This document shows positions 2,205 through 58,026 of a stretch of 64,000 bases of DNA, piece by piece (positions within the stretch are counted from its first letter, which is position 1; each line of letters begins with the position of its first letter). Location: the NCBI GenBank assembly GCA_963812745.1, contig CAWEWE010000004.1, positions 188,760-252,759 on the forward strand, written 5' to 3'. The notes beneath the pieces were generated by a model. That model saw nothing but the letters and a program-made list of their open reading frames with translations. It had not been told where the DNA came from and made no database searches. The position numbers and the translations under genes were made by a program. The stretch is from an uncultured Chloroflexia bacterium. GTDB lineage: Bacteria > Chloroflexota > Limnocylindria > Limnocylindrales > CSP1-4.

Positions 2205-2285
2205 TCACCCGCGACAGACCGCTCGCTCGTCGAACGGGCTCGCAACGGCGACCTCGACGCGTTCGAGGAGATCCTGCGTGTCCGG

Positions 2286-6319: not shown

Positions 6320-7954
<1,635 letters not shown>

Positions 7955-8010
7955 ACGCGGGCGGCATCACGGTGCCGCAGCCGAAGGGTCAACAGGAAGG
8001 ATACAGCGGG

Positions 8011-8568
8011 CTAGTACACGTACACCGTGACGTCGGTGATGCCGCTCCACGATGGGCAACCGCAGATCTTGAAGAAGTCGGGCCGGTACAGGTCGACGAT
8101 CCGGCGCTCCAGCTGCGGGCCGTAGTCGTTCACGACCCGTTCGATGCAGCCCGCTGCGCCGCAGATGATCACGACGGTGCCGCGTGGCAGACGCATCGCG
8201 GTGGTGCCGTGATCGTAGAACGTGGCCTCGCCCTTGAGCGTGTATTTCTCGGGCTTGCGGTCGGATCGTGCCCCGCTGTCGGGCTGGTCGACCGAGGCAC
8301 GACCGAGTGGGCCTGTCTCCGGCGTCTCGCCCGGTTCGAAGAAGGTCGTCTCGGCATCGACGACGCCCACGGAACGGTACGCGCCATCAAGCCCGGCGAT
8401 CTCGATGAGCGATCGCTCGGCGGACGCGGGGATCGAGTACGGCTGGAATGCTCCGGCCGGGACGGGCTCCACGGCGCTGGGGACGCGGGAGCCGGCCAGG
8501 CCCGGCAGCGAGACCAGGGCGAGGGCGGTGCTGATCACCGACCCTACGACCAACCATCTCGGTCGCAC
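8011..8568 (-). CDS. Secreted RlpA-like double-psi beta-barrel (septal ring lytic transglycosylase RlpA family) protein
   Basis: Signal peptide MRPRWLVVGSVISTALALVSLPGLAG. The C-terminal GEATFYDHGTTAMRLPRGTVVIICGAAGCIERVVNDYGP...RIVDLYRPDF matches the RlpA/DPBB pattern. Confidence 0.55.
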   Translation of the reverse strand: MRPRWLVVGSVISTALALVSLPGLAGSRVPSAVEPVPAGAFQPYSIPASAERSLIEIAGLDGAYRSVGVVDAETTFFEPGETPETGPLGRASVDQPDSGARSDRKPEKYTLKGEATFYDHGTTAMRLPRGTVVIICGAAGCIERVVNDYGPQLERRIVDLYRPDFFKICGCPSWSGITDVTVYVY

Positions 8569-9010: not shown

Positions 9011-10735
9011 TCAGCGGATGACGACGATGTCGTCGCCTGGACCGCTCTCGACGATGCCCACGCCGTCTTCCGACCACGCGGCGATCTGGATGCGACTGCC
9101 CTCGCCGCCCTCGCCCGGCGGCGATGCCCATGCGAGGCGGCCCTCGCCCATCGAGAAGCCTGGGAGCGCGGATTCCTGGACGGGTGCACCGTCCACGCGC
9201 TCGAGGCGGCCGTTGGCCTGATCCACGTGGTACAGCGTCAGCTTCCCGACGCTCGACTCGGGCTTCTCGGCGACCCACACGGCGACCCATTCGCCCGCCT
9301 CGTCCCAGCGCACGTCGAAGTCTCCCGCGGCCGCATCGGCCACGACGCGGGATCGCTCCGATCCCGTGGCGTCGCGCGGCCCCGTATCGGTCCATCGCCG
9401 CAGCTCGAGCGTCCCGTTCGCCGGCGCCCACGTCGTATCTGCACGCTCGACCGAGCCATCCCAGGCGATCGCGAAGCGACCGGTCGGGTCGACGACGGGT
9501 CGCCACAGGTCGCCGGCCTCGGCCTCCGCCCGTGTCGCCGGATCGATCCTGACCGACACGGGACGGGCGTCGTCCGATCCCGGTTCGCTCGGCCGACTGG
9601 CGATCATCTCGTTCCCGGACCACGAGGCGAAATACGACATGCCGTCGTCGGTGGCCTTCACGGCTTGCTCGTCACCGACGCGCCAGACATACACGTCCGC
9701 ACCGCCTGACCCGCCCGCCGAACGGGCTGTGAAGGCGAACCACGAGCCATCGGCCGAGAACGCCGCCGACTCGCCGACGACTTCGATCCCACTCGCGATC
9801 GCCACGTTCGCGGCCATGGTCGGTTCAGGGCTCAGCGTCGGGCTGGCCGAGGGTTCGACGGACGCGGCGACGCTCGTGCTGGCCGACGGCTCGCTGGACG
9901 CCGTGACGACCGGCGATGCGCTCGGCGTCGCCGGTACGGGTGTCTCGGCCGGCGGCTTCGCTGATGGGGCTGGTGTCTGGTCGGGCTCCGGGAGCGCCAC
10001 GACGACGACGTCGTCGCCTGCTGTCGCGCTCTTCGCGATGGCGACCGCTTGCCGGCGGGTCGGGGAGCCGACGATCGTCTTCGTCGCGCCCTTGAAGGCC
10101 ATCGCGCTATCCCTGTCGGTCTCGAGGGTCGGACAGCCCGCAGACGCCTTGACGGGGCAGACCTCGTTCACCCTCGCGGTGACGACACCGGCATTCGGAC
10201 CCTGGTCGATCCAGCCGACGGCGCCGGCATCGACTGCGAAGGGCGTCGCTTCTACCCCGGTCGGTACGGCTGCCACGCTCGTCCCCGGCGGCAGCTCGAT
10301 GCCATCATCGCCTTTCACCCCATTTCCGGTGTCGTCATAGAACAGGATGGTCCCGGACAGCAGGGTTACCCCGACAGCGATCGCAACGACGACGATCCCC
10401 GACATGGCCCCGACCGGCACGCTCCGTCGGGCCGGACCGGCCGCGTCCCCGGCCCCGCCCGAGGCCTCCGCCTCGATGGCTGCCGCGGTCCGCGCCCACA
10501 GATCGCGCGGTGGCTCCGGCAGCTGGTCGCGCAATGCCCGCAGCGCGACTCGATCGTCCTCGAACGCAGCGGCGATGGCGGCGCACGACGGACAACCGGC
10601 GAGGTGCTCGTCGAGCCAGGTCGATTCCGTGAGGCCCAGTGGGCCGTCGAGGCGCTCCGCGAGCCGGGTCCGGGCATGGGCGTGCTCGTCGGACCAGCGA
10701 TCCTGCCGCCGACGGAGGTGCGGGAAGCGGCTCAT
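9011..10735 (-). CDS. Zinc-finger (ZAS-type HxxxCxxC) anti-sigma factor with a TM helix and a large extracytoplasmic domain
   Basis: N-terminus ...WLDEHLAGCPSCAAIAAAF contains the H-x3-C-x2-C motif. TM segment GIVVVAIAVGVTLLSGTILFY. An Ala/Ser/Pro-rich linker follows. It overlaps the upstream sigma gene stop by 4 nt. Confidence 0.7.
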   Translation of the reverse strand: MSRFPHLRRRQDRWSDEHAHARTRLAERLDGPLGLTESTWLDEHLAGCPSCAAIAAAFEDDRVALRALRDQLPEPPRDLWARTAAAIEAEASGGAGDAAGPARRSVPVGAMSGIVVVAIAVGVTLLSGTILFYDDTGNGVKGDDGIELPPGTSVAAVPTGVEATPFAVDAGAVGWIDQGPNAGVVTARVNEVCPVKASAGCPTLETDRDSAMAFKGATKTIVGSPTRRQAVAIAKSATAGDDVVVVALPEPDQTPAPSAKPPAETPVPATPSASPVVTASSEPSASTSVAASVEPSASPTLSPEPTMAANVAIASGIEVVGESAAFSADGSWFAFTARSAGGSGGADVYVWRVGDEQAVKATDDGMSYFASWSGNEMIASRPSEPGSDDARPVSVRIDPATRAEAEAGDLWRPVVDPTGRFAIAWDGSVERADTTWAPANGTLELRRWTDTGPRDATGSERSRVVADAAAGDFDVRWDEAGEWVAVWVAEKPESSVGKLTLYHVDQANGRLERVDGAPVQESALPGFSMGEGRLAWASPPGEGGEGSRIQIAAWSEDGVGIVESGPGDDIVVIR

Positions 10736-11322
10736 CGATCGACCTCGGCCGGGCGGCCGTGGTCACGGCCAGCATCCCGGGCGGCCTCGGCGGCGGCGTC
10801 CGCGTCACGCTCCGCGGCGAGTGCCTGGCGCAGGGATTCGCGCGCGCGTGTCAGCAGCGCCCGCGCCGCCACGTGGCTGACGCCCAGGGCGGCTGCCAAC
10901 TCGAGACCGGTCAGGTCGTGCAGCTCGGCTAGCAGGAGCGCGGCCCGCTGGCGCTCGGGGATCCGGGCCAGGGCACGCTGCAAGTCGCCGGATAGTCGGG
11001 CGTCCATGACGAGATGCTCAGCCGACGGCGCCGACCCCTTCGACTCGCCGGTCCACGGCAGGAACCGGACGATCTTGCGCCGGCGGATCTCGTCGAGGGC
11101 CACGCGGTGGGCGATCTGGTACAGCCACGCCCGCGCGTTCTCGGGCTTCTCGAGCGTGTCGTAGTTCTTGTACGCCTTGATGAAGGCGTCCTGGGTCATG
11201 TCGGCCGCGACCTCCGGATCGCGCATCATCCGGAAGAGGTACGCGTAGATCTCGCCGTGGTGCTTGGCGAAGATCTCCTCGACGAAGCTGCCCGCCTCGT
11301 CGCGATCCCAGATGCCGCTCAT
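10732..11322 (-). CDS. ECF-type RNA polymerase sigma factor
   Basis: Region 2 motif EEIFAKHHGEIYAYLFRMMRDPEVAADMTQDAFIKAYKNYD and region 4 motif LTGLELAAALGVSHVAARALLTRARESL. The likely start is MSGIWDRD at 11322. The track ORF extends upstream through non-coding-looking sequence. Confidence 0.8.
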   Translation of the reverse strand: MSGIWDRDEAGSFVEEIFAKHHGEIYAYLFRMMRDPEVAADMTQDAFIKAYKNYDTLEKPENARAWLYQIAHRVALDEIRRRKIVRFLPWTGESKGSAPSAEHLVMDARLSGDLQRALARIPERQRAALLLAELHDLTGLELAAALGVSHVAARALLTRARESLRQALAAERDADAAAEAARDAGRDHGRPAEVDR

Positions 11323-11521
11323 CGGGCGACCTCGATCGGCACCGCGAACGGCGGTTCGGCCGAATGGATCGCGTAGCTGTGCGGTTGACGGGTCGAAGGG
11401 CACGGCGGCTCCGGGCGGATGGGATCCTCGAGCACACGGAGTGGGCAGCGCACGCTCGATGCGCCAGAGACGAGGCATCTCCCCCACATGTGACGCCCGG
11501 CGCCATCGGGCAAGGCCCACA

Positions 11522-12523
11522 TCAACCCGATCCACCTCCCTCCGGATCGGCGCGGCCCAGCAATTCCTCGACCGCGTCCTCCGGTGAGACGGGGTTCACG
11601 GGCAGCCCGGTTCCCAGCTCGAGGCCGGCGATCTCGCGCAGCCGCGGGTGGATCTCCCAGTGCCAGTGGTAGGTGCCGTCGACCTGCTCGCGCAACGGCG
11701 CTGTGTGGAGCACGAGGTTGTACGGCGGCCCATCGAGCGACCCGGCGAGACTGCCGAGGACCTGGCGGAGCGCTTCGGCGGTGGCCTTGATCGTGTTCGC
11801 GTCGGCCCGGCCGAAGTCGGCGTCGTGACGGCGCGGGACGATCCAGATCTCGAACGGCGAGCGCGACGCGTACGGGGCGAACGCCACGCTGTCGTGATCC
11901 TCCCAGACGAGGCGGTCGGGCCGCACCGACTCCTCGCGGACCAGCCGGCAGAACGGGCACTCGCCCTCGCGGATCACGAAGCGGGCAGCGCCGCCGAGCT
12001 CCTCGGCGATCCGATGGGGGATCTGCGGCAGGTCGTACAGGTCGAGACAGAGGTGGTTGGTCCGTGCGCCGGCCTGGGCGCCCCAGTTCTGGACCACTGT
12101 CAGGTACTCGGTCTGCGGGTCGTCCCGCGCCTCGGCGAGGGCATCGCGAGCGCCGGCCACGAGGCCTTCGATCAGATCGGTGCCGACGGCATGCAGCGGT
12201 CGATGCTCGCCCGCCGGGGCGATGACGGTCCGCCACGATCCGGTTGCCCGCGCCTGGGCCAGCGACACCTGGGCGATCCCGTGATCGCGGTCGAGCTCGC
12301 GCGCCTCGCTATCGGTCCCGACGACGTGGAACGCGTAGTCCTTGAGGACGCGCGTGCGCACCCCATCGCCCGGGGCGGCGCAGTTGCCACAGCCGAACAG
12401 CCGGTCGTCGACGGGCTCGGCCGCTCGTGCGAACCGGTCGAGGTGGAAGGCGCGGTCCACCACCGTGGCCACCCACCAGCTGGTGATCGGGTCCTTTCGG
12501 AGCTCGAACAGACCGCTCGGCAT
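11522..12523 (-). CDS. Galactose-1-phosphate uridylyltransferase-like (HIT superfamily) nucleotidyltransferase
   Basis: The N-terminus LRKDPITSWWV resembles the GalT DPLTGEWV signature. Also present: CPFC zinc motif, ...NWGAQAGARTNH..., and a C-terminal HWHWEIHP motif. The canonical HPH nucleophile motif is not obvious. Confidence 0.5.
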   Translation of the reverse strand: MPSGLFELRKDPITSWWVATVVDRAFHLDRFARAAEPVDDRLFGCGNCAAPGDGVRTRVLKDYAFHVVGTDSEARELDRDHGIAQVSLAQARATGSWRTVIAPAGEHRPLHAVGTDLIEGLVAGARDALAEARDDPQTEYLTVVQNWGAQAGARTNHLCLDLYDLPQIPHRIAEELGGAARFVIREGECPFCRLVREESVRPDRLVWEDHDSVAFAPYASRSPFEIWIVPRRHDADFGRADANTIKATAEALRQVLGSLAGSLDGPPYNLVLHTAPLREQVDGTYHWHWEIHPRLREIAGLELGTGLPVNPVSPEDAVEELLGRADPEGGGSG

Positions 12524-13805: not shown

Positions 13806-14243
13806 ATGATGGAGTCCAGCCTGTACGACCGCCTGGGTGGGGCGTTCGCGATCGCGGCCGTCGTCGACCAGTTCAGCGACGCGCTCTTCGACAACCCCAA
13901 AGTCGGCACCCGCTCGGATAATCCGCAGCTCCAGCAGTGGCACGCGAACCAGCGGGATCGACTGCCTGGACTCAAGTTCATGCGCACGCTATGGGTGTGC
14001 AACGTGGCCGGTGGACCATTCGAGTTCACCGCCACGCGACCCGGCAGCACGGCACTCGGCCTCGAGGAGGCGCACCGCGAGCTCAAGATCTCGCCGGAGG
14101 AGTTCGACGAGGTGGCAGCAGAGCTCGGCCGGACGCTCGACGCGTTCAAGATCCCGGAGAAGGAGAAGGGCGAGGTGCTGGCTGCCTTCGCCGCGCACAA
14201 GGGTGAGGTGACCGAGGGCCACATGGCGCTCGCCGGGCGCTAG
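13806..14243 (+). CDS. Truncated (2/2) haemoglobin family protein
   Basis: N-terminal LYDRLGGAFAIAAVVDQFSDALFDNPKVG matches the trHb pre-A/B-helix signature (YxxxGG...VxxFY..L..D). Length 145 aa. Confidence 0.7.
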   Translation: MMESSLYDRLGGAFAIAAVVDQFSDALFDNPKVGTRSDNPQLQQWHANQRDRLPGLKFMRTLWVCNVAGGPFEFTATRPGSTALGLEEAHRELKISPEEFDEVAAELGRTLDAFKIPEKEKGEVLAAFAAHKGEVTEGHMALAGR

Positions 14244-14250: not shown

Positions 14251-15369
14251 CTACGAGGGCCGGACGTCCCCGACCGTGTCGTTGAGTCGCAGGAGGGCGG
14301 CCTTCCGCATCCACGGCTCGTAGACCGCGATCCCGTCGTCGCGTCCCTTGGCGGTGTACATCGCGGTGTCCGCCTGCCGCAGCAGGGTCTCAGGCGAGCC
14401 GTCGGGCGCCACGTAGGCGATCCCGATCGTGACCGACACCCGCAGCGAATGGCCACCGATCGTGGTGGCGCCGTGGACGGCGGAGCGGAGCCGTTGGGCG
14501 ATCGTCACGGCCGTGTCGCGCTCGCCGATCGAGGCCAGCACGCAGAACTCATCGCCGCCGAAGCGCGCCAGGATGTCGGCCGGCCTGGTGGCGCTCGCGA
14601 GCCGCTGGGCCACGATCCGGAGCACCTCGTCCCCGATCGAGTGGCCGAGGCCGTCGTTGACGTCCTTGAAGCCGTTGAGGTCGAGGAACAGCAGCGCCCA
14701 CGGTTCGGGCAGCTGGTGCACGCGTTCGAGCTCGATGTCGAGCTGCTCGCGGTTCAGCAGGCCCGTCAGCGTGTCGTGGGAGGCTCGATACGCGAGCGAC
14801 TCCTCGGTGCGCTTCTGATCGGTGATGTCGATCATCACGCCGACGAGCCGGTGACCCGATCCGTCCGCTTTGCGGATGACGCGGATCACGTCAGAGAACC
14901 AGCGGTACTCGCCGGTCGCGATCTGGAAGCGGTACTCGATGCGGATGCTGGTCAGGGCCTTGATCGCCGCATCGGTCACGGACATCGCGCGTACGCGGTC
15001 CTCCGGGTGCAGGTGGCGCTCCCAGAACTCCGGCTCGTTGAGCCAGCGCTCCGGCGGGTAGCCCACGATGTCCAGCGCCCGCGGCGAGACGAACGTCATC
15101 TTGTAGTCGTCGCCATCCGCCTCCCACACGATGGCGTCGAGCGAGCCGACGAGGTCGTCGAACCGGCTCTGGCTCAGGAGCGGTTTGGCTGGGAGGGCCG
15201 GCGCCGACGACCCGTCAGCGGCGGCCGGCAGGCGAGGCAGGGCCGGATGTCGGAGCGGCCGGGCTACGCCCACGGCGGTCGGCGCACGGGGATCCGACCG
15301 AGGCGATTCCCCGGCCTGCGAGCCGGGCGACCTCGGACTGGACGCGGTCCGTTGGTGCGAGCGGGACAT
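14251..15369 (-). CDS. PAS-GGDEF diguanylate cyclase
   Basis: GGDEF active site RFGGDEFCVL and LTGLLNR. A PAS-like region (IEYRFQIATGEYRWF) sits upstream. The low-complexity N-terminus makes the true start uncertain. Confidence 0.8.
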   Translation of the reverse strand: MSRSHQRTASSPRSPGSQAGESPRSDPRAPTAVGVARPLRHPALPRLPAAADGSSAPALPAKPLLSQSRFDDLVGSLDAIVWEADGDDYKMTFVSPRALDIVGYPPERWLNEPEFWERHLHPEDRVRAMSVTDAAIKALTSIRIEYRFQIATGEYRWFSDVIRVIRKADGSGHRLVGVMIDITDQKRTEESLAYRASHDTLTGLLNREQLDIELERVHQLPEPWALLFLDLNGFKDVNDGLGHSIGDEVLRIVAQRLASATRPADILARFGGDEFCVLASIGERDTAVTIAQRLRSAVHGATTIGGHSLRVSVTIGIAYVAPDGSPETLLRQADTAMYTAKGRDDGIAVYEPWMRKAALLRLNDTVGDVRPS

Positions 15370-16598: not shown

Positions 16599-16621
16599 GT
16601 GACTTGCAAGTTGCAAGTCAC
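16599..16621 (+). promoter_or_regulatory. Perfect 23-bp palindrome GTGACTTGCAAG TTGCAAGTCAC (11-bp arms). It is a candidate operator between the divergent aldolase and protease genes.
   Basis: Seen in sequence. The reverse complement is identical except at the central base. It lies 17 nt upstream of the protease ATG, immediately 5' of the AGGAG SD. Confidence 0.55.
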
Positions 16622-16637
16622 AGGAGCAAGCGGTCTC

Positions 16638-17630
16638 ATGGTCTCCACGCTCGAGCGGCCTGACCCCCGCTCGGTAGCCCCGGAAGTCGATAGCGATGAC
16701 AGCGCGGTCCTCGATGCGTATTCGATGGCCGTCAGCGCGGTCGCGGAAACGCTCATCCCGTCCGTCGCGAGCTTGCGCATCACCCGGCAGGTCAACGGCT
16801 GGACCGCAGGCGGCGCAGGGTCGGCAGTCTCGTTCACCCCGGACGGGTTCCTCGTGACGAGCGCCCACGTCGTGGCAGGCGCCGATCGCGGGTCCGCGGC
16901 ATTCGTCGACGGATCGGAGCGTGACTTCCGGGTCGTCGGACGCGACACGCTCAGCGACCTGGCGATCGTCCGTTGTGACGGCGACCTCGTCGCGGCGCGG
17001 TTCGGTGACGCCGCTCGACTCAAAGTCGGACAGCTGGTGGTCGCCATCGGGAATCCGCTCGGCTTCACCGGCTCGGTGACGGCCGGTGTGGTGAGCGCAC
17101 TCGGCCGATCCCTCGCCGTCCGCGAAGGACGGAATAGCCGGATGGTCGAGAACGTGATCCAGACCGACGCGGCACTCAACCCCGGCAACTCCGGCGGAGC
17201 GTTGGCCGATTCCCGCGCCCGCGTGGTCGGCATCAATACCGCCGTCGCAGGGATCGGGCTCGGGCTCGCCGTCCCCATCGACGACCAGGCCCGCGCCATC
17301 CTCGCCGCCCTGATGCGCGAGGGACGCGTTCGGCGCGCCTACCTTGGCGTCGTCGGCGGGCCGAGGCCGCTCCCACCCCGGCTGGCGGGATCGCTCGCCC
17401 GTCAACGCGGGCTCGAGGTCGCCCAGGTCCTGGGCGGGTCGCCCGCCAGTGCGGGCGGCATCCGCGAGGGTGACCTGATCCTCGACCTTGACGCACAGCC
17501 CATCGAAAGCGTCGCGGATCTCCAGCGACGGCTCGTGGGGGACGCCATCGGACGGCGGTTGACGGTCCGCGTCGCCCGCGGCGATCGCCTCGTCGATCTC
17601 GACGTTACGCCGATCGAACTGACGGCCTAG
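16638..17630 (+). CDS. HtrA/DegP-like trypsin-family serine protease with a C-terminal PDZ domain
   Basis: Catalytic triad context: VTSAHVV (His), TLSDLAIV (Asp), GNSGGAL (Ser). PDZ-like region GLEVAQVLGGSPASAGGIREGDLILDLD. The ATG at 16638 is preceded by AGGAG. The track ORF start at 16599 falls inside the palindrome. Confidence 0.8.
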   Translation: MVSTLERPDPRSVAPEVDSDDSAVLDAYSMAVSAVAETLIPSVASLRITRQVNGWTAGGAGSAVSFTPDGFLVTSAHVVAGADRGSAAFVDGSERDFRVVGRDTLSDLAIVRCDGDLVAARFGDAARLKVGQLVVAIGNPLGFTGSVTAGVVSALGRSLAVREGRNSRMVENVIQTDAALNPGNSGGALADSRARVVGINTAVAGIGLGLAVPIDDQARAILAALMREGRVRRAYLGVVGGPRPLPPRLAGSLARQRGLEVAQVLGGSPASAGGIREGDLILDLDAQPIESVADLQRRLVGDAIGRRLTVRVARGDRLVDLDVTPIELTA

Positions 17631-17740
17631 TCGGGCGGCCCGAAGGGCGGCCACGCGCACAGCAAGGCGGACCATCGGCGGCAACGCGCAGACATTCGAC
17701 CCCTCGTGGCGCTCGGGGGAGGCGCTAGGATGCAGGCCTC

Positions 17741-18613
17741 ATGACCGATCAGCCCCGCGCCGAAACTCCCGACGCCTTTGCCTTGGGAGGCCCGCCGCCG
17801 GCATCAAGCCAGCGCCCGCTGCCGCTCCGGCAGATGGGGATCGGCGAGCTCGTCGACGGCGCCGTCAAGCTCTATCGGCGCGACTGGCTCGCGCTCATGG
17901 GGATCTCCGCCTTGGTCCTCGTCCCGGTCACGTTCATCCAGCTCTGGGTGACGCAGACCATGGTCGCGTCGGTGGACGTGTTCGCGACCGACGAGGAGTT
18001 CCAGGCGATGACCACCCAGCTCATCATCGTCACGCTCGTCTTCGTCGTGGTCCAGGTGTTCATCGTCCAGCCGTTCCTCGTCGCCGCGATCTCGCGCGCC
18101 GCCGCCGACGCGTACCTCGGGAAGAGCGTGACCCTGGGGCAGACCCTCCGCTACGCGCTGTCGAGGTTGCCCGCGATCCTGTGGGTCACGATCATCACGC
18201 TGGTCGTGACGACCATCGGGTTCATCCTGTTGATCATCCCTGGGGTCCTCGCGCTGGTTCGTCTCACGCTGACGCCGGCCATCGTGGTCGTCGAGGACGT
18301 GCGCGGGACCAGCGCCGTCAGCAGGTCCTGGAGCCTCACTGGGGGCCATTTCTGGCGGGTGTTCGCGACGTTGATCCTGTCCGGCATCATCGCGGCGGTC
18401 GGGGCGGCGATCATCCAGATCCCGACCGAGGTGATCGCGACGATGCTCGGACCCGAGGGCTGGCCGGTGTCCGCGCTCGGTACCGCGCTGGCCAGTGTGG
18501 TCGTCACTCCGTTCAGCCTCCTGATCGTCGTCCTGCTCTACTTCGACTTGCGCGTGCGCAAGGAGGGCTACGACATCGAGGTGATGGCGCAGGAGCTCGC
18601 ACCCGCTTCGTGA
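17741..18613 (+). CDS. Polytopic membrane protein (glycerophosphodiester-phosphodiesterase-membrane-domain-like). First gene of the conserved MoxR-associated cluster.
   Basis: At least 5 hydrophobic helices. The C-terminal motif is LLYFDLRVRKEGYDIEVMAQEL. It is translationally coupled (GTGA) to the next gene. Confidence 0.55.
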   Translation: MTDQPRAETPDAFALGGPPPASSQRPLPLRQMGIGELVDGAVKLYRRDWLALMGISALVLVPVTFIQLWVTQTMVASVDVFATDEEFQAMTTQLIIVTLVFVVVQVFIVQPFLVAAISRAAADAYLGKSVTLGQTLRYALSRLPAILWVTIITLVVTTIGFILLIIPGVLALVRLTLTPAIVVVEDVRGTSAVSRSWSLTGGHFWRVFATLILSGIIAAVGAAIIQIPTEVIATMLGPEGWPVSALGTALASVVVTPFSLLIVVLLYFDLRVRKEGYDIEVMAQELAPAS

Positions 18614-19542
18614 GGCGGAGGGGCTGGCTGCGTGCGCCGCTCGCGGCGCTGGTCGGCATCCTGGCGCTCGCCTCGCCGGGCCTCGCGCAGACCCAGCTCA
18701 GCCAACAGGAGTTCCTGGATCGGCTCGAACGCGCGACGGAGATCGCACGCCTGGACGGCGCCGTTCCGTCACCGCAGCGCATGGCCGACCTGCGCGCCGC
18801 CCTCGGCCTGCCGGTGGAGATCGTCATCGGCCACTGGTCGGCTGAGATCGAGCGCGACCCGCTCCTCGAACGCTTGTCCGGCGAGAACGCCGACGACTTC
18901 GAGCGGGCGGATCTGCGGCTGGCGGCGATCGGCAGCGCGCTGGACGATGCGATCTCGCGCGAGGCACGTTCCTCCGCCGACATCGCGAATGCCCTCGCGG
19001 GCGCCTATAGCGGCGTGGTCCCGCCGCGTCCTGACCCACTCCTTATCGTGCTCCAGTACTTCGAAGACGTGATCCAGGGGATCCTGCAGCGCCTCGGAAA
19101 CGTGCTGCCCAACGCCGGGAGCGCCCTCGCGTGGGTGGTGCTGGTCGGGATCGTGGTGTTCGCCGCCTGGTTCGCGTTCCGGTCCCGGCTCGTACCCGAC
19201 CGCGCATCGCGGGAGGGTACCCAGCGTGGCCGCACCACGAGTTCGGTGGACTGGGCGGCACGGGCGGAGGAGGCGCTGCGGGCCGGCGATCTCCACGAGG
19301 CGGTCCGGGCCTCCTACCTTGCACTGCTGGCCGTCCTGGCTGGCAAGGGCATCGTGGCGAACGCTCCCGCCCTCACTGCGGGCGAGGCGCGCTTCGCCGT
19401 CCAGCGCCTACGACCGGCGCTCTTCCCGACGATCGCCCGCGCCACCGACTCGTACGAGCGGGTGATCTACGGTGGCGCGCAACCGGACCGACGCGACGTC
19501 GAGCAGCTTCGCGAGGCGACCGCCGAGGCGAGGAAGCCGTGA
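18610..19542 (+). CDS. DUF4129-like secreted/membrane-anchored protein
   Basis: GTG start overlapping the upstream stop. Signal peptide MRRRGWLRAPLAALVGILALASPGLAQ. A C-terminal TM helix (LAWVVLVGIVVFAAWFAF) is followed by a cytoplasmic tail. The family assignment is from pattern memory and not verified. Confidence 0.5.
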   Translation: MRRRGWLRAPLAALVGILALASPGLAQTQLSQQEFLDRLERATEIARLDGAVPSPQRMADLRAALGLPVEIVIGHWSAEIERDPLLERLSGENADDFERADLRLAAIGSALDDAISREARSSADIANALAGAYSGVVPPRPDPLLIVLQYFEDVIQGILQRLGNVLPNAGSALAWVVLVGIVVFAAWFAFRSRLVPDRASREGTQRGRTTSSVDWAARAEEALRAGDLHEAVRASYLALLAVLAGKGIVANAPALTAGEARFAVQRLRPALFPTIARATDSYERVIYGGAQPDRRDVEQLREATAEARKP

Positions 19543-20594
19543 TCACCCGTCGCCGGCTCCTCTTCGCCAGTGCGATCGTGGTATTGGCCGTGCTCGTGTT
19601 GCTCACGCCACGCAGCGAGGACCCTGATTCGATGCTCGCGCTGCGGCGCTTCTACGAGAACCTCGGCCTTGACGTCAGCGAGCGCGACGGATTGCCATCG
19701 AGCGGCGGGACGCTCGTCCTCGTCGCCGACATCCGTGGTCCGGACGAGACCGGGCCCATCCTGGACTGGGTCGATGGTGGCGGCCATCTGGTCGTGGCGG
19801 ACCCGACGTCCGAGTTCGTCCAGATGGCCGGCGGCTCGGCGGCCGCGACACTCGGGTTCGGCGGCACGGTGGACCTTGCACCGGGCTGCGTGACGCCGGC
19901 CGTCGTCGGTGTCGACCGCATCGTCGCGCGGTCGTCCGACCTCATCCTCGTCGCCGATGATCCGGCGTTGGTGCCGTGCTTCCCGGTCGGTGATGGCGCA
20001 CTCGTCCTGACGCGCACATACGGCGAGGGCTCGGTCACGTTGCTCGGCGGCGCCAGCGCGTTCACGAACGCGCTCCTGCGCGAGGCAGACAACGCCGTGT
20101 TCGCCGCCGGCATCGCGGGTCCGGGGTCGGAGGTCGTGTTCGGCCCGCCGACCTCGGCCCTCGGCGGCTCGACCGGGCTGTGGGACACGTTGCCGGATCG
20201 TGCCCGGGCGGCCGTGTGGGCGATCATCGTGGCGGCGGTGGCGTTCGCGCTCGTCCGGGCCCGGCGGCTCGGACGACCCGTGGTCGAGGCGCCGATCGCG
20301 CCGATCCCCGGCAGCGAGCTCGTCCGGGCGGCGGGACGCATGTACCGACGGGCTCGCGCGACACCGTATGCCGGCACGCTGATGCGGCAGGCTACGGTGG
20401 CGCGGTTGTCGCGACGCTTCGGGGCGGCGGGCGCGCACGACCTGTCCGCAGCGGTGGCACGAGCAAGCGGGCAGCCGCGGGATCGCGTCGAGGAGATCCT
20501 CGCCGGGCGCGACCCCCAGAACGACGATGAGCTGATGGCACTCGGAGCAGAACTGGAAGGCCTGTCGGCCGGAGCAGAGATGGGAGGCAGATGA
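19539..20594 (+). CDS. DUF4350-like membrane-anchored protein
   Basis: GTG start overlapping the upstream stop (GTGA). N-terminal TM LLFASAIVVLAVLVLL, a periplasmic domain, and a second TM AAVWAIIVAAVAFALV. Conserved neighbour of MoxR/DUF58 genes. Confidence 0.5.
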   Translation: MITRRRLLFASAIVVLAVLVLLTPRSEDPDSMLALRRFYENLGLDVSERDGLPSSGGTLVLVADIRGPDETGPILDWVDGGGHLVVADPTSEFVQMAGGSAAATLGFGGTVDLAPGCVTPAVVGVDRIVARSSDLILVADDPALVPCFPVGDGALVLTRTYGEGSVTLLGGASAFTNALLREADNAVFAAGIAGPGSEVVFGPPTSALGGSTGLWDTLPDRARAAVWAIIVAAVAFALVRARRLGRPVVEAPIAPIPGSELVRAAGRMYRRARATPYAGTLMRQATVARLSRRFGAAGAHDLSAAVARASGQPRDRVEEILAGRDPQNDDELMALGAELEGLSAGAEMGGR

Positions 20595-21541
20595 ACGACC
20601 CGCGCGAGTCACTCGATGCGGTCCGCCGCGAGGTGGCCAAGGCCGTGGCCGGCCACGATGACGTCGTCGACGGCCTGCTGGTCGCGCTGCTGGTCCGCGG
20701 GCATGTCCTGCTCGAGGGGGTGCCCGGCGTTGCCAAGACGCTGACCGTCAAGGCGCTGGCCAGATCGCTCGACCTCGGGTTCCGCCGGATCCAGCTGGCG
20801 CCTGACCTGATGCCGTCGGACATCACCGGCAACGTCGTCTACGTGGCGGGCTCCGGCGAGTTCCGCTTCCGGCGCGGGCCGGTCTTCACGAACTTCCTGC
20901 TCGCCGACGAGATCAACCGGACCCCACCGAAGACGCAGGCAGCGCTCCTGGAGGCGATGGAGGAGCGACAGGTCACGGTCGAGGGCGAGAGCTCCGCGTT
21001 ACCCGATCCGTTCCTCGTGGTCGCCACCCAGAACCCGGTCGAGTTCGAAGGCACCTATCCCCTTCCTGAGGCGCAACTCGACCGTTTCCTGTTCAAGCTG
21101 GCGGTCGGCTACCCGAACCGGGACGACGAGCGAGCCGTGCTCCAGATGCACAACGAAGGCCGCGATCCGCACGACCTCGCGAGCCTCGGCGTCGAGCCCG
21201 TCGCCGGTGCGGACGTCTTGCGCGAGGGCGCCAAGCAGGTGCGTGATATCGAGGTCGCGACCGAGGTCATGGACTACGTCCTCGACCTCGCCGCCGAGAC
21301 ACGGCGGGCGCCATCACTCGTCCTCGGGGTGAGCCCTCGCGCGGCGGCGATGCTGCTCGTCGCAGTCAAGGGCTGGGCCTACCTGCGCGGGCGCGCGTTC
21401 GTGACGCCCGACGACGTGAAGGCCGTCGTCAAGCCCGCGTGGCGACACCGGGTCGTGCTCCGACCAGAGGTCGAGCTGGAGGGAGGCACGGCCGACTCGG
21501 TGGTCGACGCCGTCGTCGAGCGCGTGCCCGTCCCGCGCTAG
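20591..21541 (+). CDS. MoxR-family AAA+ ATPase
   Basis: Walker A LLEGVPGVAKT, Walker B FLLADEINR, ...VVATQNP..., and the characteristic MoxR length (316 aa). Confidence 0.88.
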   Translation: MNDPRESLDAVRREVAKAVAGHDDVVDGLLVALLVRGHVLLEGVPGVAKTLTVKALARSLDLGFRRIQLAPDLMPSDITGNVVYVAGSGEFRFRRGPVFTNFLLADEINRTPPKTQAALLEAMEERQVTVEGESSALPDPFLVVATQNPVEFEGTYPLPEAQLDRFLFKLAVGYPNRDDERAVLQMHNEGRDPHDLASLGVEPVAGADVLREGAKQVRDIEVATEVMDYVLDLAAETRRAPSLVLGVSPRAAAMLLVAVKGWAYLRGRAFVTPDDVKAVVKPAWRHRVVLRPEVELEGGTADSVVDAVVERVPVPR

Positions 21542-21543
21542 CG

Positions 21544-22848
21544 ATGTACCTCGGACGGCGGCTGCCGCTGGCGATCCTGCTGGTCGCGGCCGCGGCGTTG
21601 GTCGCGCCCGGAATGCCCTGGCTCGTCCTGGCCGTCGGTCTGTTGGCGGTGCTCGCCCTCGTCGTGCTGGACGTGGTGTTGGCACCGCGCGCCGCCGCCC
21701 TCCAGCCGCGCAGGGAAGCACCAAGCGTCCTACGGCTGCGCCGGCCGGCCGCGACGACGCTGTCCCTTTACAACCCGACGGGGCGCTCGCTCGACGTGGC
21801 CGTCCACGACGCCGCGCTGCCGTCGGTGGGTCGGACGCCGCGCCGTGATCGGGCATCGATCGAACCCGGAGGCTGGCTGGAGCTCGGCGCGGAGCTCGAA
21901 CCGAGCCGCCGAGGCCGGTTCCGGCTCGGACCGCTCACGCTGCGGACCGCCGGACCGCTTGGCCTCGCCGGGCGACAGGCGACGCTGCCCCAGGTCCAGG
22001 ACGTCAAGGTCTACCCGGCGTTGAAGGGCCGCGACGAGGTCGCGCTGCGCCTGCGCCGCGGCCGGCTGCTCCAGGCCGGCGTCCGCTCGTCGGCGATCCG
22101 CGGCGGCGGCAGCGAGTTCGACGCGCTGCGCGAGTACCTGCCCGACGACGAGTTCCGACGCATCAACTGGCGCGCGACCGCCCGATCGTCGTCGGCCATC
22201 ACGAACCAGTTCCGCGAGGAGAAGAACCAGCAGCTGATCCTGCTGCTCGATGCGAGCCGGGCGATGGCCGGCCAGGTCGAGGGCGTGTCACGCCTGGAGC
22301 ACGCGCTCGACGCGGCGGTCGCGGTCGCCGAGCTCGGCACGCGGATCGGCGACCACGTCGGGGTCGTCGCGTTCGGCCAGGCAGTGCGCGCCCAGCTCGA
22401 TCCGCGCGGCAGCCGGGATCAGCCGCACCGGATCATCGACGTGTTGTTCGGCATCGAGCCGCTGCTCGAGGCGCCCGACTACGGCGGCGCCTTCGCGAGC
22501 GTGCTGCGCCGCCATCGACGGCGCGCGCTGATGGTCCTGTTCACCGACCTCTCGGAGCGCTCCGTCCTCGAGCCGCTGCTCAAGGCAGTGCCGGTGCTCC
22601 TGACGCGCCACGTCCTGATGATCGCGGCGGTCCGCGACCCGGAGGTGGAGTCGATGGCGCGGGCTACACCGACGACGTCGGCCGAGGCCTACGAGAAGGC
22701 CGCGGCCTCCGAGTTCCTCGAGTGGCGCGATGGCGCGGCGGCCCTGCTGCGACGCATGGGCGTGCCGACGTTCGACCTCCACCCGGATGCGCTCGCGGGT
22801 CGGATGGCCGACGAGTACCTGCGCATCAAAGCGCTGGGGCGCCTCTGA
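21544..22848 (+). CDS. DUF58 domain protein (VWA-like partner of MoxR ATPases)
   Basis: Two N-terminal TM helices, a GGGSEFDALREYLPDDEFRRINWRATAR motif, and a MIDAS-like segment LLLDASRAM. Confidence 0.8.
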   Translation: MYLGRRLPLAILLVAAAALVAPGMPWLVLAVGLLAVLALVVLDVVLAPRAAALQPRREAPSVLRLRRPAATTLSLYNPTGRSLDVAVHDAALPSVGRTPRRDRASIEPGGWLELGAELEPSRRGRFRLGPLTLRTAGPLGLAGRQATLPQVQDVKVYPALKGRDEVALRLRRGRLLQAGVRSSAIRGGGSEFDALREYLPDDEFRRINWRATARSSSAITNQFREEKNQQLILLLDASRAMAGQVEGVSRLEHALDAAVAVAELGTRIGDHVGVVAFGQAVRAQLDPRGSRDQPHRIIDVLFGIEPLLEAPDYGGAFASVLRRHRRRALMVLFTDLSERSVLEPLLKAVPVLLTRHVLMIAAVRDPEVESMARATPTTSAEAYEKAAASEFLEWRDGAAALLRRMGVPTFDLHPDALAGRMADEYLRIKALGRL

Positions 22849-23794
22849 ACCGCGCTAGGCGCGGCAGGCGGGGTCCGAACAGGAACACGACATACCCTGC
22901 CGCGACGGCTGCACCGAGCGCGATCTCGAGGGCCGGCATCCCCGTCCGGCCCGTGACGAACCCCTCGATGAGCGCGGCGATCAGGAACGCCGGGATGACA
23001 CCGATGACGATCAGCACCGCATCCCGCGCCTCCTCCGCCAGGGCCGTGGTGCGCAGCCGGTCACCCGGATCCACGATCGACCAGCCGATGCGCAACCCGG
23101 CGCCACCCGCGATGCAGATCGCAAGGAGCTCGAGGAAGCCGTGGGGCAGCACGAGTGCAAAGAAGATGTCGGCCTTGCCCGCCGCAACGGCTCCACCCGC
23201 GAGGACGCCGATCAGGGCCGCGTTCTGGACGATCACGAAGATGGTCCCGATCCCGAGCGTGATGCCGAGCGCGAAGGCGAGGAACGCCACCTGCACGTTG
23301 TTCTGGAAGATGAAGGCCGACATCTCCGGGCTACCGAGATCGTCAGCGACCGACCCGTCGGCACGCTCGAGGGCTTCGCGGGTAGCGGGCGGGAGCACGC
23401 CCACCCGCGCCTCTTCCGAGGTGGCCACCCAGACGCCCGTCGCAACCATGAGGCCGAACAGCAGCGCTGCGATCACCACGATGTGCGGCACGGTGCGCCG
23501 GATGGCCTGGCGGTAGCGGGCGCCGAAGAGCTCCAGCGTCCCGCGCAGCGAACGGGCCTCGGTGCCGTAGATCGCTGCGTGCGCACGCGCGACCATGCCG
23601 TTGAGGTAATCGACCAGCGTCGGGTCGTGATACCGCGACTGGACCTCGGCCAGGTGCGAGGACACGCGCAGATACAGCCGGATCATCTCGGTCACGTCCG
23701 CGCCCGCGTTCGAACCCTGGTACGAACGGCTGACGGCGCTGTCCAGCGCGTTCCATTCAGCACGGTGCTTGGCGATGTAAGAATCGAGGTCCAT
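22826..23794 (-). CDS. Stage II sporulation protein M-like (DUF95) integral membrane protein
   Basis: A soluble N-terminal region followed by several TM helices (HIVVIAALLFGLMVATGVWV; FLAFALGITLGIGTIFVIV; IIPIV...). Convergent with DUF58, with a 23-nt overlap. Confidence 0.6.
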   Translation of the reverse strand: MDLDSYIAKHRAEWNALDSAVSRSYQGSNAGADVTEMIRLYLRVSSHLAEVQSRYHDPTLVDYLNGMVARAHAAIYGTEARSLRGTLELFGARYRQAIRRTVPHIVVIAALLFGLMVATGVWVATSEEARVGVLPPATREALERADGSVADDLGSPEMSAFIFQNNVQVAFLAFALGITLGIGTIFVIVQNAALIGVLAGGAVAAGKADIFFALVLPHGFLELLAICIAGGAGLRIGWSIVDPGDRLRTTALAEEARDAVLIVIGVIPAFLIAALIEGFVTGRTGMPALEIALGAAVAAGYVVFLFGPRLPRLARFRGAPAL

Positions 23795-23817
23795 CCTGCG
23801 CAGAGTATGAGGGGGCG

Positions 23818-24579
23818 ATGACGGCCGACTACGCGGCGAGCACGGTCACACCCGAGGCAGTCCAGCTCAACGCCGACATCGCCGGCGTCGGGTCCAGGAC
23901 GATCGCCCTCCTGGTCGACACCTTCCTCCAAGGGATGGTGCTGCTGCCCGTCCTGTTCGTGAGCCTCGAGCAGGGGCCGGGTGGGACCGGCCAGGCGATC
24001 GTCATCGGCATCATCGTGTTCTTCGTGGTGTGGTTCTACTACCCGGCATTCGAGCTGCTGTGGCACGGCCAGACGCCGGGCAAGCGGTTCCAGGGGATCC
24101 GTGTCGTGCGGACCGACGGCCAGCCGGTCGGCCTGGCACCCGTGCTCGTGCGCAACCTCATCCGGATCATCGACGTGATCCTGCTGCCGTTCCTGGCGTT
24201 GATCTCGATGGTCATCACGCGGCGCAGCCAGCGGCTCGGCGATCTGGCCGCCGGCACGATGGTGGTCCGGGAACGGGCGCTGCCGGCACCGAGCATTCTG
24301 CCGTTCGGCGTCCCAGGCGTCTCGGGCGCCCCAAGCATTCCCGCGTCGACGCTCGACACGTCCGCCATGACCGAGCGGGACTACACCGTCCTGCGGACGT
24401 TCCTGGCGCGCCGTTCCACGCTGGACTGGAAGGCCCGCCAGCAGCTCGCGACTCGGCTGGCGGCGCGGGTGCGCGAACAGCTCCGCGAGCGACCCGGTGA
24501 TACCGGCCTCACGGACGAGCAGCTCATCGAAGCCGCCGCGCAGTCGTACCGGGCAAGGTTCACGGATCGCCCCGGCTGA
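23818..24579 (+). CDS. RDD family membrane protein
   Basis: The R..D..D signature is spread over the TM region (TIALLVDTFLQ...GKRFQGIRVV...RRSQRLGDLAAGTMVV). A C-terminal soluble domain follows. Confidence 0.65.
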   Translation: MTADYAASTVTPEAVQLNADIAGVGSRTIALLVDTFLQGMVLLPVLFVSLEQGPGGTGQAIVIGIIVFFVVWFYYPAFELLWHGQTPGKRFQGIRVVRTDGQPVGLAPVLVRNLIRIIDVILLPFLALISMVITRRSQRLGDLAAGTMVVRERALPAPSILPFGVPGVSGAPSIPASTLDTSAMTERDYTVLRTFLARRSTLDWKARQQLATRLAARVREQLRERPGDTGLTDEQLIEAAAQSYRARFTDRPG

Positions 24580-24625: not shown

Positions 24626-24701
24626 GCGGGAGTAACTCAGTTGGCAGAGTGTCTGCTTCCCAAGCAGGATGTCGCGGGTTCGAGCCCCGTCTCCCGCTCC
24701 A
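24626..24701 (+). tRNA. tRNA-Gly: tRNA-Gly (anticodon CCC)
   Basis: Cloverleaf folded by eye. Acceptor GCGGGAG/CUCCCGC. D-arm ACUC-AGUUGGCA-GAGU. Anticodon stem UCUGC/GCAGG with loop UUCCCAA. T-arm GCGGG-UUCGAGC-CCCGU. A 3' UCCA is encoded. Confidence 0.85.
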
Positions 24702-26420: not shown

Positions 26421-27110
26421 CTAGGCGGGCATCGGCTGCGGGGCAGCCACCCTCTTCGGTGCCTTCTCCTCGGCTGCTCGCGTCGCCCACACCAGCCCGA
26501 GTCCGGCGATGAGGACCGTGAACCCGATCCCTGCGAAGAGCCCGGCGAGGCCGAGGCCCATCTGCAGGGTCGACGCCGTCACGGTGCCGACACCAAGGTT
26601 GGCGATCAGGGCGTGTGCCGTGCCCGTCCAGGCCTTGTCGCGCGCCGGCCCCTCGATGGGATGCTGGCGGTCGAAGTCGGTCCAGTAGCGGCCGTCGACG
26701 GCGAACTCGTACTCACCGGCGGGGAAGATCTCGCCGTTGTACTCCGTCTGCTCGTCAAGGACGATCGTCTGGGTTCCGTGCAAGGTGTGATAGGCGACCG
26801 TCGCCATCTGGTACATGTACTCGGTCGGGGTGTTGACCAGCGGATCGTTCGGGTTCAAGTCACCCTCCACGACCGGATACCCCCACTCCTCGCGCAGCAG
26901 CGCCAGGATCGACTGCGCGCCCTCGGGCTCGCCGCGATCGACGAGCACGCCCTGCTCGTTGTAGCTGAGCTGGATGTCCTGCGCGGCGCTGAACGCCTGC
27001 AGCGACCGGACACCCTCCTGGGTCCGGATGAACGCGTAGGCGCCGCCGGCCATGAAGACCAGGCCGAGGACCGCCAGGATGAGGCCGAGGCCTCGCAATC
27101 GTCCGATCAT
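26421..27110 (-). CDS. Hypothetical bitopic membrane protein with N- and C-terminal TM helices flanking an extracytoplasmic domain of roughly 170 aa
   Basis: Likely start MIGRLRGLGLILAVLGLVFMAGGAYAF at 27110, with GGAAAGGGA SD. C-terminal TM GLGLAGLFAGIGFTVLIAGLGLVWA. The upstream part of the track ORF lies in low-GC non-coding sequence. Confidence 0.5.
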   Translation of the reverse strand: MIGRLRGLGLILAVLGLVFMAGGAYAFIRTQEGVRSLQAFSAAQDIQLSYNEQGVLVDRGEPEGAQSILALLREEWGYPVVEGDLNPNDPLVNTPTEYMYQMATVAYHTLHGTQTIVLDEQTEYNGEIFPAGEYEFAVDGRYWTDFDRQHPIEGPARDKAWTGTAHALIANLGVGTVTASTLQMGLGLAGLFAGIGFTVLIAGLGLVWATRAAEEKAPKRVAAPQPMPA

Positions 27111-27273
27111 CGAAGTATCCCTTTCCACTTTGTTCCTTGTCGTTGACCTGACATGACTTTGGCGGTCCTGATGGCCTCCGCCTGTTGCCGAACGGACCCA
27201 TTCGCAAGCCCGATGGCCCGGGTCCCTGGGGTCCATTCGTCACATGACCCACGGGACCTAGCCCGACTCCGCA

Positions 27274-38597: not shown

Positions 38598-38914
38598 GCG
38601 GACATCGGCCGGCGATGGAATGGGCTGCTGCCGGTAACGAAGCGACCGACCAGCGTGGCGAGCACACCGCCGATGAGCCCACCAAGCAGCGCCTCGTCGA
38701 AGGCGAGGCCATCCACGATCGGCTGGATCTCATCGATCGTCGCCGTGGCGAAGAGCGCCTCGCTCATGTATAGCCCGCCGACGAACCAGCCGGCCGCGCC
38801 GAGGACCCACAGCCACGGCGTCTCGGCTCGGCCGACGAGCTGGGCGACCGCGCCGAAGGCGAGCGCGACGATGACCAGGATGCCGAGCCCGGTCAGTCCG
38901 AGGTCGTACTGCAT
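38594..38914 (-). CDS. GlsB/YeaQ/YmgE family stress-response membrane protein
   Basis: Small Gly-rich membrane protein (GLGILVIVALAFGAVAQLVG...GAAGWFVGGLYM...GGLIGGVLATLVG). Paralogue of 61910..62227. Confidence 0.55.
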   Translation of the reverse strand: MQYDLGLTGLGILVIVALAFGAVAQLVGRAETPWLWVLGAAGWFVGGLYMSEALFATATIDEIQPIVDGLAFDEALLGGLIGGVLATLVGRFVTGSSPFHRRPMSA

Positions 38915-44568: not shown

Positions 44569-44583
44569 CCGGTCCCTGGTGGG

Positions 44584-57999: not shown

Positions 58000-58026
58000 T
58001 CCTTCAGAAGGTAGCCGAATCGCTGG

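Follow-up and report, generated by a model that had tools for sequence, protein, structure and literature searches.

Which of the genes clustered around a MoxR AAA+ ATPase belong together, and what could they do at the cell envelope? These questions are raised by a stretch of 64,000 nucleotides (nt) from an uncultured Chloroflexia bacterium (GenBank assembly GCA_963812745.1, contig CAWEWE010000004.1, positions 188,760 to 252,759 of the forward strand), hereafter the window. At window positions 17741-24579 it shows seven genes (g1 to g7), which an initial annotation, made from the sequence, had grouped as a conserved and uncharacterised MoxR-centred cluster with a suggested function in envelope assembly or remodelling. 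We found that these genes are one functional unit, divided in three transcription units (g1-g5, g6 and g7), and that their order and orientation are kept in all 25 related genome loci, as far as each contig extends. The seven genes are the following:

17741-18613, plus strand: g1, polytopic membrane protein of 290 amino acids (aa) with about six transmembrane (TM) segments; Pfam matches sub-threshold
18610-19542, plus strand: g2, DUF4129 protein of 310 aa, bitopic; 42.5 bits against a cut-off of 24.8
19539-20594, plus strand: g3, DUF4350 protein of 351 aa, bitopic; 68.5 bits against a cut-off of 30.4
20591-21541, plus strand: g4, MoxR AAA+ ATPase of 316 aa; AAA_3 212.5 bits, AAA_lid_2 74.3 bits
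21544-22848, plus strand: g5, DUF58 protein of 434 aa; DUF58 87.5 bits, VWA_2 33 bits, VWA_CoxE 26.3 bits
22826-23794, minus strand: g6, SpoIIM-family membrane protein of 322 aa; SpoIIM (PF01944) 138.4 bits
23818-24579, plus strand: g7, RDD-family membrane protein of 253 aa; RDD 83 bits

Domains were assigned at the Pfam curated gathering cut-offs, and approximately 57 open reading frames (ORFs) of the window were scanned. The six families that had been named (DUF4129, DUF4350, MoxR, DUF58, SpoIIM and RDD) all exceeded their cut-offs, which includes the placement of the ORFs 18610-19542 and 19539-20594 in DUF4129 and DUF4350, and g1 is polytopic, as had been stated; the label "permease" for the SpoIIM-like protein found no support. 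The window has a G+C content of approximately 70%, and the G+C content at third codon positions (GC3) of the seven proposed ORFs ranges between 0.87 and 0.93, with 0.93 in g1, as expected of real genes.

The genes had been described as following one another with 4-nt overlaps of stop and start codons. This holds at three junctions, g1/g2 (GTGA at 18610), g2/g3 (GTGA at 19539) and g3/g4 (ATGA at 20591), but not at g4/g5, where a 2-nt gap separates the MoxR stop codon (TAG, 21539-21541) from the DUF58 start codon (ATG, 21544); position 21538 shows CTA, which is no start codon. All 20 DUF58 orthologues compared are 433-439 aa long, and therefore the start at ATG 21544 is supported. Downstream, g5 and g6 are convergent and their 3' ends overlap by 23 nt, while g6 and g7 are divergent, with 23 nt between their start codons, and a GGGGG Shine-Dalgarno-like run precedes g7.

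The 25 related loci were obtained by a genome scan, in which each species was represented by one genome and an alignment of DUF4350 homologues served as query, and their synteny was analyzed by tblastn with the seven window proteins. Across these loci, sequence identity drops to 40% for g3 and to 31% for g1. The same layout was found in three metagenome contigs (L026-L028), with Acidimicrobiales-like relatives, as well as in the complete genome of Terrabacter sp. BE26 (L030) and in Solwaraspora sp. WMMB335 (L031). In the last two, the three 4-nt overlaps are also present and the MoxR orthologues are approximately 60% identical to g4. The conservation of the neighbourhood, which had been predicted, is thus borne out by gene order and strands in all these loci and, for mycobacteria, by published annotation (PMC8191103). 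Its placement "across Actinobacteria" may be too narrow or misplaced: the closest public metagenome-assembled genomes (MAGs), with DUF4350 proteins of 67-80% identity, were deposited as "uncultured Chloroflexia bacterium", and the next closest as Actinomycetota.

By domain content, order and strand pattern, the seven genes appear to correspond to Rv3689-Rv3695 of Mycobacterium tuberculosis, a correspondence that is read from published annotation and not from alignment, and that also draws on the MoxR identity of approximately 60% to other actinomycetes. The positional counterparts are Rv3689 (g1), Rv3690 (g2), Rv3691 (g3), Rv3692 or moxR2 (g4), Rv3693 (g5), Rv3694c (g6) and Rv3695 (g7). A gene table of M. 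chelonae maps to MAB_0386c-0392c of M. abscessus and Rv3689-Rv3695 (PMC8191103). Six of the seven genes are in this table with the same annotations and strands: membrane protein, DUF4350, MoxR, DUF58, SpoIIM (on the opposite strand) and RDD; the gene at the DUF4129 position, Rv3690/MAB_0391c, is not in the table (PMC8191103). The mycobacterial locus has glpK and glpF as neighbours, unlike the window.

The genes flanking the unit differ among loci, and since the flanks vary while the seven genes are constant, the unit consists of these seven genes only. Upstream of g1 in the window, at a distance of 110 nt and on the same strand, a gene encodes an HtrA/DegP-like serine protease with Trypsin_2 and PDZ domains (16599-17630, plus strand). 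This gene was considered as a further member and discarded, since none of the 25 related loci contains it, not even the closest; in the closest MAG (L001) an aldolase gene is located directly 5' of g1. The protease gene beside the module is a lineage-specific insertion of an envelope protease. The opposite edge adjoins the following feature:

24626-24701: tRNA-Gly(CCC), 46 nt past the g7 stop codon

The cluster had been said to end exactly at this tRNA, which is correct for the window but does not describe a boundary of the unit. The tRNA-Gly(CCC) adjoins g7 in the window only; in the closest MAG it is found at 18707-18782, 3.7 kb further on, past an aminotransferase gene. A conserved boundary or a mobile element marked by the tRNA was rejected, as the flanks differ even in this MAG, and the adjacency is incidental because the flanks are not conserved. 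In a dozen more distant loci (L004-L016 and L023), a tRNA-Leu(TAA) is located immediately upstream of g1, at approximately 7900-8100 of the respective locus. These arrangements suggest that the edges of the module were repeatedly rearranged.

Two further contigs show particular arrangements. A 68.6-kb metagenome contig (L032; ENA ERZ25039547 contig_137763) is 99.6% identical to window positions 20160-24541, and upstream of the point matching 20160, inside g3, it contains unrelated DNA with a Cob_adeno_trans gene and an amidohydrolase fragment. Because the DNA upstream of the match is unrelated, this contig lacks g1, g2 and the g3 ectodomain, which is due either to a truncation that arose naturally in a sister strain or to chimeric assembly. 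In Solwaraspora sp. WMMB335, and in this one genome, mtrA-mtrB-lpqB (1868-6154 of the locus) divergently adjoins the seven-gene unit; these genes, a two-component system and a lipoprotein, were named from the Pfam labels Response_reg/Trans_reg_C, HAMP-HisKA and Germane/Gmad1.

The centre of the unit is the MoxR protein. In g4, the Walker A (GVPGVAKT), Walker B (LLADEINR) and sensor-1 (ATQNP) motifs are intact and invariant in 26 sequences, and on this basis the protein is predicted to be an active motor. Its closest solved structure is 2r44_A (E 6e-71). The AAA_3 core followed by AAA_lid_2, with a DUF58 gene immediately downstream, assigns it to the MRP-type MoxR proteins, and its score with the bpMoxR model (40 bits) is far below that with AAA_3 (212).

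The topology of g2, g3, g5, g6 and g7 and the TM segments of g1 were derived from hydropathy and charge bias. According to this, g5 shows an N-terminal TM hairpin, a cytoplasmic middle domain, the DUF58 signature (GGGSEFxxLREYxPDDEFRRINWRATAR) and a VWA-like domain. The metal ion-dependent adhesion site (MIDAS) of the latter is degenerate: it reads DASRA in the window and D-[AS]-[SG]-R-x in all 21 orthologues, instead of the expected DxSxS, and beta-4 reads FT[DE]L, so that the DxSxS motif with downstream Thr and Asp ligands of a functional MIDAS is not found. The VWA-like domain has no canonical metal-binding MIDAS, so it is probably a plain protein-protein adaptor. A sequence search of the PDB did not find any relative of g5. 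The unit was also considered as an anti-phage defence system and this was rejected, as PADLOC gave no hits apart from a marginal AAA match.

The DUF4350 protein g3 has an N-terminal anchor, an acidic extracytoplasmic DUF4350 domain (residues 25-205), a TM segment (221-243) and a basic cytoplasmic tail of approximately 110 aa. GIFT domains are the non-catalytic scaffolds of oligosaccharyltransferase (OST) and of the GldG transporter. Among the fold matches of g3 are OST48 and WBP1 of oligosaccharyltransferase and, after these, ThuA-like proteins, GATase1 domains and the trimerisation domain of GH42. It does not show a catalytic triad, and the Cys-His-Glu residues of class I glutamine amidotransferases are not found. 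In the predicted model, the DUF4350 ectodomain is a non-catalytic GIFT domain, as in IFT52 and OST48, and two invariant cysteines, C117 and C147, fit an external disulfide. A link between DUF4350 and GldG by HHpred (PMC5898192) agrees with this fold. In relation to the scaffolds IFT52, OST48/WBP1 and GldG, g3 differs in its low sequence identity (11-15%), its conserved tail of approximately 110 aa and the AAA+ motor encoded with it, and no glycosyltransferase or ABC transporter gene is linked to the unit. On the cytoplasmic side, g3 shows the juxtamembrane motif RRLGRPxxExPxxPIPGSELVRA, followed by a helical tail. This tail was found in 673 representative proteins, always C-terminal on proteins of DUF4350 size; its use as a portable module on other ectodomains was rejected, since the 10 most deviant of the 673 matches are all DUF4350 proteins.

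The DUF4129 protein g2 contains a signal peptide or N-terminal anchor, an acidic ectodomain (approximately residues 28-165), a TM segment (172-190) and the cytoplasmic DUF4129 domain (213-308). Its ectodomain belongs to no known family and is about 90 aa longer than in distant relatives, where the proteins have 212-266 aa. Foldseek gave nothing significant for the g2 model, and no structural match was found for the model of its ectodomain. The DUF4129 domain is modelled as a cytoplasmic helical bundle resembling HEPN; the catalytic Rx4-6H motif that defines HEPN ribonucleases is not present.

The g1 protein itself shows sub-threshold Pfam matches (UPF0259, 26 bits; GPDPase_memb, 22 bits). All 10 syntenic orthologues tested match the GPDPase_memb/UPF0259(YciC)/DUF975/DUF7847/DUF7544 group, four of them above the gathering cut-off, and g1 is placed in this group as well. 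Its N-terminus is cytoplasmic, and its C-terminal part shows the highly conserved motif YFDLRxRKEGxDxExMAQE.

The SpoIIM-family protein g6 shows a cytoplasmic N-terminal domain of approximately 96 aa (DUF8413 of Pfam in orthologues), followed by approximately six TM segments with the invariant intramembrane motif PHGxxE. The RDD protein g7 shows three TM segments, the conserved RDD signature residues R27, D34 and RLGDL, and a cytoplasmic tail of approximately 110 aa. Elements at the cytoplasmic face are far better conserved than ectodomains across the unit: mean pairwise identity is 0.78 in MoxR, 0.79 in the DUF58 signature, 0.75 in the g3 juxtamembrane motif and 0.69 in the g1 C-terminal tail, compared to 0.42 and 0.54 in the ectodomains of g2 and g3, respectively.

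A docking domain common to the tails of g2, g3 and g7 was tested and, at the level of sequence, rejected, with hhalign probabilities of 0.1-14%, and 0.1% with deeper alignments. The only remaining link between the g2 and g3 tails is that their AlphaFold2 models both match the generic small helical bundles 3mfn_A and 1wwp. At a smaller scale, residues 255-270 of g3 (20301-20348) resemble residues 33-48 of g1 (17837-17884) with the pattern G-[SE]-EL-V-x-x-A-x-x-h-YRR, and this short motif adjoins a TM helix in both proteins. Comparison by hhalign of GSELVRAAGRMYRR, from the juxtamembrane region of g3, with IGELVDGAVKLYRR, from the N-terminus of g1, gave a probability of 43% over 20 residues, which is too weak for a claim of homology; the motif could nevertheless be a shared contact site.

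What could such a set of proteins do? The gene content, synteny, topology, folds and motif conservation observed here are combined in a tentative model, to which we give slightly less than even confidence: a membrane-embedded MoxR/DUF58 remodelling machine acting on an envelope scaffold. In this model, an active MoxR AAA+ ring would be located at the inner face of the membrane, tethered by the DUF58 protein through its TM hairpin, with the VWA-like domain probably as adaptor. The motor would engage the juxtamembrane motif and helical tail of g3, the DUF4129 bundle of g2 and the YFDLRxRKEG motif of g1. ATP hydrolysis would then assemble, reset or change the oligomeric state of an extracytoplasmic scaffold formed by the g2 ectodomain together with the non-catalytic GIFT domain of g3, and the SpoIIM-like and RDD proteins would be a polytopic platform and a lipid- or ligand-sensing element, tied to envelope growth or division. 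We infer which proteins are in physical contact, in which direction the machine acts and that its target is the envelope. The function in envelope assembly or remodelling that had been suggested for the cluster is plausible.

Several published observations are consistent with this model. In Bacillus, SpoIIM acts as a scaffold for peptidoglycan hydrolases, and genes for its bacterial homologues are found next to vWA and COG0714 genes (PMC5898192). Purification of the divisome protein Rv0954 also recovered Rv3694c and Rv3695, together with PbpA and LamA (PMC8093794). RDD proteins show a conserved intramembrane binding site and are often fused to the lipid-acting VanZ domain (PMC12419801), and MoxR1 of M. 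tuberculosis was reported to aid the export of the hydrolase RipA (PMC12067865).

Other points weigh against the remodelling machine. A full-text literature search found no functional study of the cluster, in line with its description as uncharacterised, and the conserved unit contains neither an enzyme nor a client gene. The contacts between motor and tails are proposed from conservation only, and no profile homology was detected among the cytoplasmic tails of g2, g3 and g7 by hhalign, so that a common docking domain is unsupported. The co-immunoprecipitation list of Rv0954 (PMC8093794) contains many membrane proteins and may be non-specific. In M. chelonae, a contiguous gene run that includes the module is down-regulated as a block, with log2 changes of −6 to −9 (PMC8191103); this may be a deletion and not co-regulation.

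A wider form of the model holds that the unit is a hitherto unrecognised AAA+-powered trans-membrane machine, with a core homologous to the archaeal DUF4350-MoxR-vWA systems, in which ATP-driven work is transmitted to an external GIFT scaffold, and which builds, secretes or repairs an envelope component across Actinomycetota, including M. tuberculosis, and perhaps neighbouring phyla. In this general form we consider it doubtful.

Transmembrane sensing or signalling is an alternative that we regard as unlikely, although several features speak for it. The ectodomains of g2 and g3, together with the RDD protein, would detect a cue, MoxR/DUF58 would set an ATP-dependent threshold or reset, and the output would be encoded elsewhere, in parallel with the MoxR-vWA pathways of the Esr/PFNA type. 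In Schaalia, the Esr pathway uses a MoxR-vWA pair to pass on a signal from the surface (bioRxiv 10.64898/2026.09.08.750141). In the unit, conservation is lowest in the ectodomains, and RDD proteins are proposed to hold an intramembrane ligand site and are sometimes fused to a histidine kinase (PMC12419801). Furthermore, the unit divergently adjoins mtrA-mtrB-lpqB in Solwaraspora; however, this adjacency is found in one genome only. The Esr/PFNA clusters of Actinomycetales and bifidobacteria, which are related to the TgpA-type operons considered below, share with the window the MoxR and DUF58 pair and a membrane protein with DUF4129 as its cytoplasmic C-terminus, and for Esr the link between surface and cytoplasm is experimental (bioRxiv 10.64898/2026.09.08.750141). 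Unlike these clusters and the ternary MoxR-vWA-beta-propeller systems, the unit shows no genes for a Ser/Thr kinase, phosphatase, FHA, FN3 or beta-propeller protein, and none was found within approximately 5 kb on each side or in the Pfam-labelled related loci. Transcription factors are likewise absent from the unit, and neither these nor a kinase, phosphatase, FHA protein or beta-propeller sensor recur as conserved neighbours; the low bpMoxR score of g4 and the PADLOC result also argue against signalling.

A secretion or translocation apparatus is less likely still. The unit would be the bacterial counterpart of the "novel secretion system" proposed for archaeal DUF4350 (arCOG01314)-MoxR-vWA clusters, and g1, the SpoIIM-like and the RDD protein would form its conduit. 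In the archaeal neighbourhood (Makarova et al. 2015, PMC5898192), a vWA protein and a MoxR ATPase of COG0714 accompany an anchored DUF4350 protein, which has an external domain of the flavodoxin/GldG-like type and a TM segment at its C-terminus; the authors interpreted this common core as a complex for secretion or membrane remodelling (PMC5898192). DUF4350 is related to GldG of the ABC transporter associated with gliding and the type IX secretion system, in accordance with the GIFT matches of the g3 fold, and proteins of the DUF95/SpoIIM family are reported as conserved components in circular-bacteriocin gene clusters. However, Ig-domain and S-layer-like proteins (arCOG02884, arCOG03442 and arCOG02487) are further members of the archaeal clusters, which are not described with DUF4129, RDD or the g1 family. 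Such partners were not detected by Pfam in the unit or its flanks, a result which does not cover a possible Ig-like middle domain of g5. The unit does not show a cargo gene, a recognisable channel or a secretion ATPase, the variable flanks contain no conserved exported protein, and MoxR ATPases are not known as translocases.

Similarly improbable is a classical MoxR-VWA maturation chaperone, which would insert a metal or cofactor into, or reactivate, a membrane enzyme encoded elsewhere, with the membrane partners as anchors only. The precedents are NorQ/NorD, CoxD/CoxE, CbbQ/CbbO and RavA/ViaA. The weak VWA_CoxE match on g5 is in favour of this role, which is also the best documented for MoxR-VWA pairs (partly summarised in PMC12067865). 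Against it, the MIDAS, which these systems use, is degenerate in all 21 orthologues, no client enzyme is linked in any of more than 30 loci, and a function as anchors hardly explains why five membrane proteins are strictly co-conserved. That unrelated and functionally unlinked membrane genes stand beside a MoxR-DUF58 pair by chance is practically excluded because of synteny, as order, orientation and overlapping stop and start codons are kept at 30-40% DUF4350 identity while the flanks change.

The unit was also compared with other systems that share some of its genes. DUF4129 is also the cytoplasmic C-terminal domain of TgpA-type transglutaminases, which are encoded beside MoxR and DUF58. The TgpA-type operons (P. 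aeruginosa TgpA, PMC3507681) resemble the unit in having a MoxR and DUF58 pair with a membrane protein, but g2 does not contain the transglutaminase core (Cys-His-Asp): Pfam gives DUF4129 only, even at E <= 0.01. The other partners in the window, DUF4350, SpoIIM, RDD and the g1 family, are also different from those of TgpA. The Bat (Bacteroides aerotolerance) operons, with BB0170-BB0176 of Borrelia, begin with a MoxR of the MRP subfamily followed by DUF58 and are reported to be membrane-associated, with no established mechanism (PMC5700661). They continue with BatA and BatB (TM and VWA_2) and the TPR proteins BatC-BatE, none of which is in the unit. Downstream of MoxR-DUF58 the unit shows SpoIIM and RDD and, according to Pfam, no TPR or extra VWA proteins, and none of its five membrane partners belongs to Bat.

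The SpoIID-SpoIIM-SpoIIP engulfment machine of B. subtilis is related through g6, a clear member of the SpoIIM family, and the Bacillus SpoIIM is a polytopic scaffold which recruits extracytoplasmic cell-wall enzymes (PMC5898192). The window protein differs in its extra cytoplasmic N-terminal domain. The SpoIID and SpoIIP families had no match among the ORFs of the window scanned, and there is no sign that the host sporulates.

Two putative promoter elements precede g1 and g6:

17726-17731, plus strand: TAGGAT, -10-like hexamer, candidate promoter element 9 nt upstream of the g1 ATG
23802-23807, minus strand: TACTCT, -10-like hexamer, candidate promoter element 7 nt upstream of the g6 ATG

The pattern TA[AG]GAT-N8-10-[AG]TG is found directly 5' of g1 in 14 of 23 related loci, and it occurs only 18 times on the plus strand in 488 kb of locus DNA. 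From the position of TAGGAT, a leader of only 0-3 nt is predicted for the g1-g5 transcript. In most related loci, the g6 start is preceded by a TA(G/C)(A/T)CT hexamer at a distance of 7-9 nt, and the short divergent g6/g7 spacer (17-85 nt) is kept across loci. Both positions would fit -10 boxes of leaderless or nearly leaderless transcripts, and g1-g5, which are translationally coupled, probably have a nearly leaderless transcript. Rfam did not show any RNA element in the unit region besides the tRNA. Simple consensus scans showed no sigma-70 sites, and terminator-like matches were not above shuffled expectation.

Few AAA+ systems that lack a general mechanism are as widespread as MoxR-VWA pairs, and this seven-gene version is nearly unchanged from uncultured soil bacteria to M. 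tuberculosis, with no assigned role. Annotated genomes already show the neighbourhood, and the literature notes it in part; new here are the GIFT assignment of DUF4350 and the HEPN-like DUF4129, both from predicted folds, the degenerate MIDAS of DUF58, the cytoplasmic conservation bias and the TAGGAT box. The anatomy is now defined: motor and adaptor are cytoplasmic, conserved putative docking motifs face the same side, the GIFT ectodomain is non-catalytic, and SpoIIM and RDD would be platforms, which turns a "conserved hypothetical" cluster into concrete contacts that are testable in tractable hosts such as M. smegmatis and Terrabacter. Should it indeed act on the envelope, the module may be relevant to the cell-wall biology of mycobacteria.

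Other genes of the window were recorded in addition to the unit. At 9011-11535, on the minus strand, a gene for an ECF (extracytoplasmic function)-type sigma factor of 267 aa precedes one for a protein of 574 aa, in which an N-terminal zf-HC2 anti-sigma motif is all that Pfam recognises; a second ECF sigma factor is found at 2286-2753. Six ORFs with coding-like GC3 show no Pfam family at the thresholds used: 8011-8568, 11522-12523, 26421-27236, 38594-38914 and 61910-62227 on the minus strand, and 53244-53735 on the plus strand. A gene encoding a PAS-GGDEF diguanylate cyclase (14251-15369, minus strand) adjoins a bacterial-like globin gene (13806-14243, plus strand), and among the related loci both are conserved only in the closest MAG. 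A run of redox genes (39375-48758, plus strand) encodes a cyclic nucleotide monophosphate (cNMP)-binding protein, an Fe-S/NAD-binding oxidoreductase and a NiFe-hydrogenase large-subunit-like protein, whose match is confined to residues 149-235, and it continues with a 2-oxoacid:ferredoxin oxidoreductase split by a CBS-domain gene. Finally, two multicopper-oxidase genes are located at 56599-59322.

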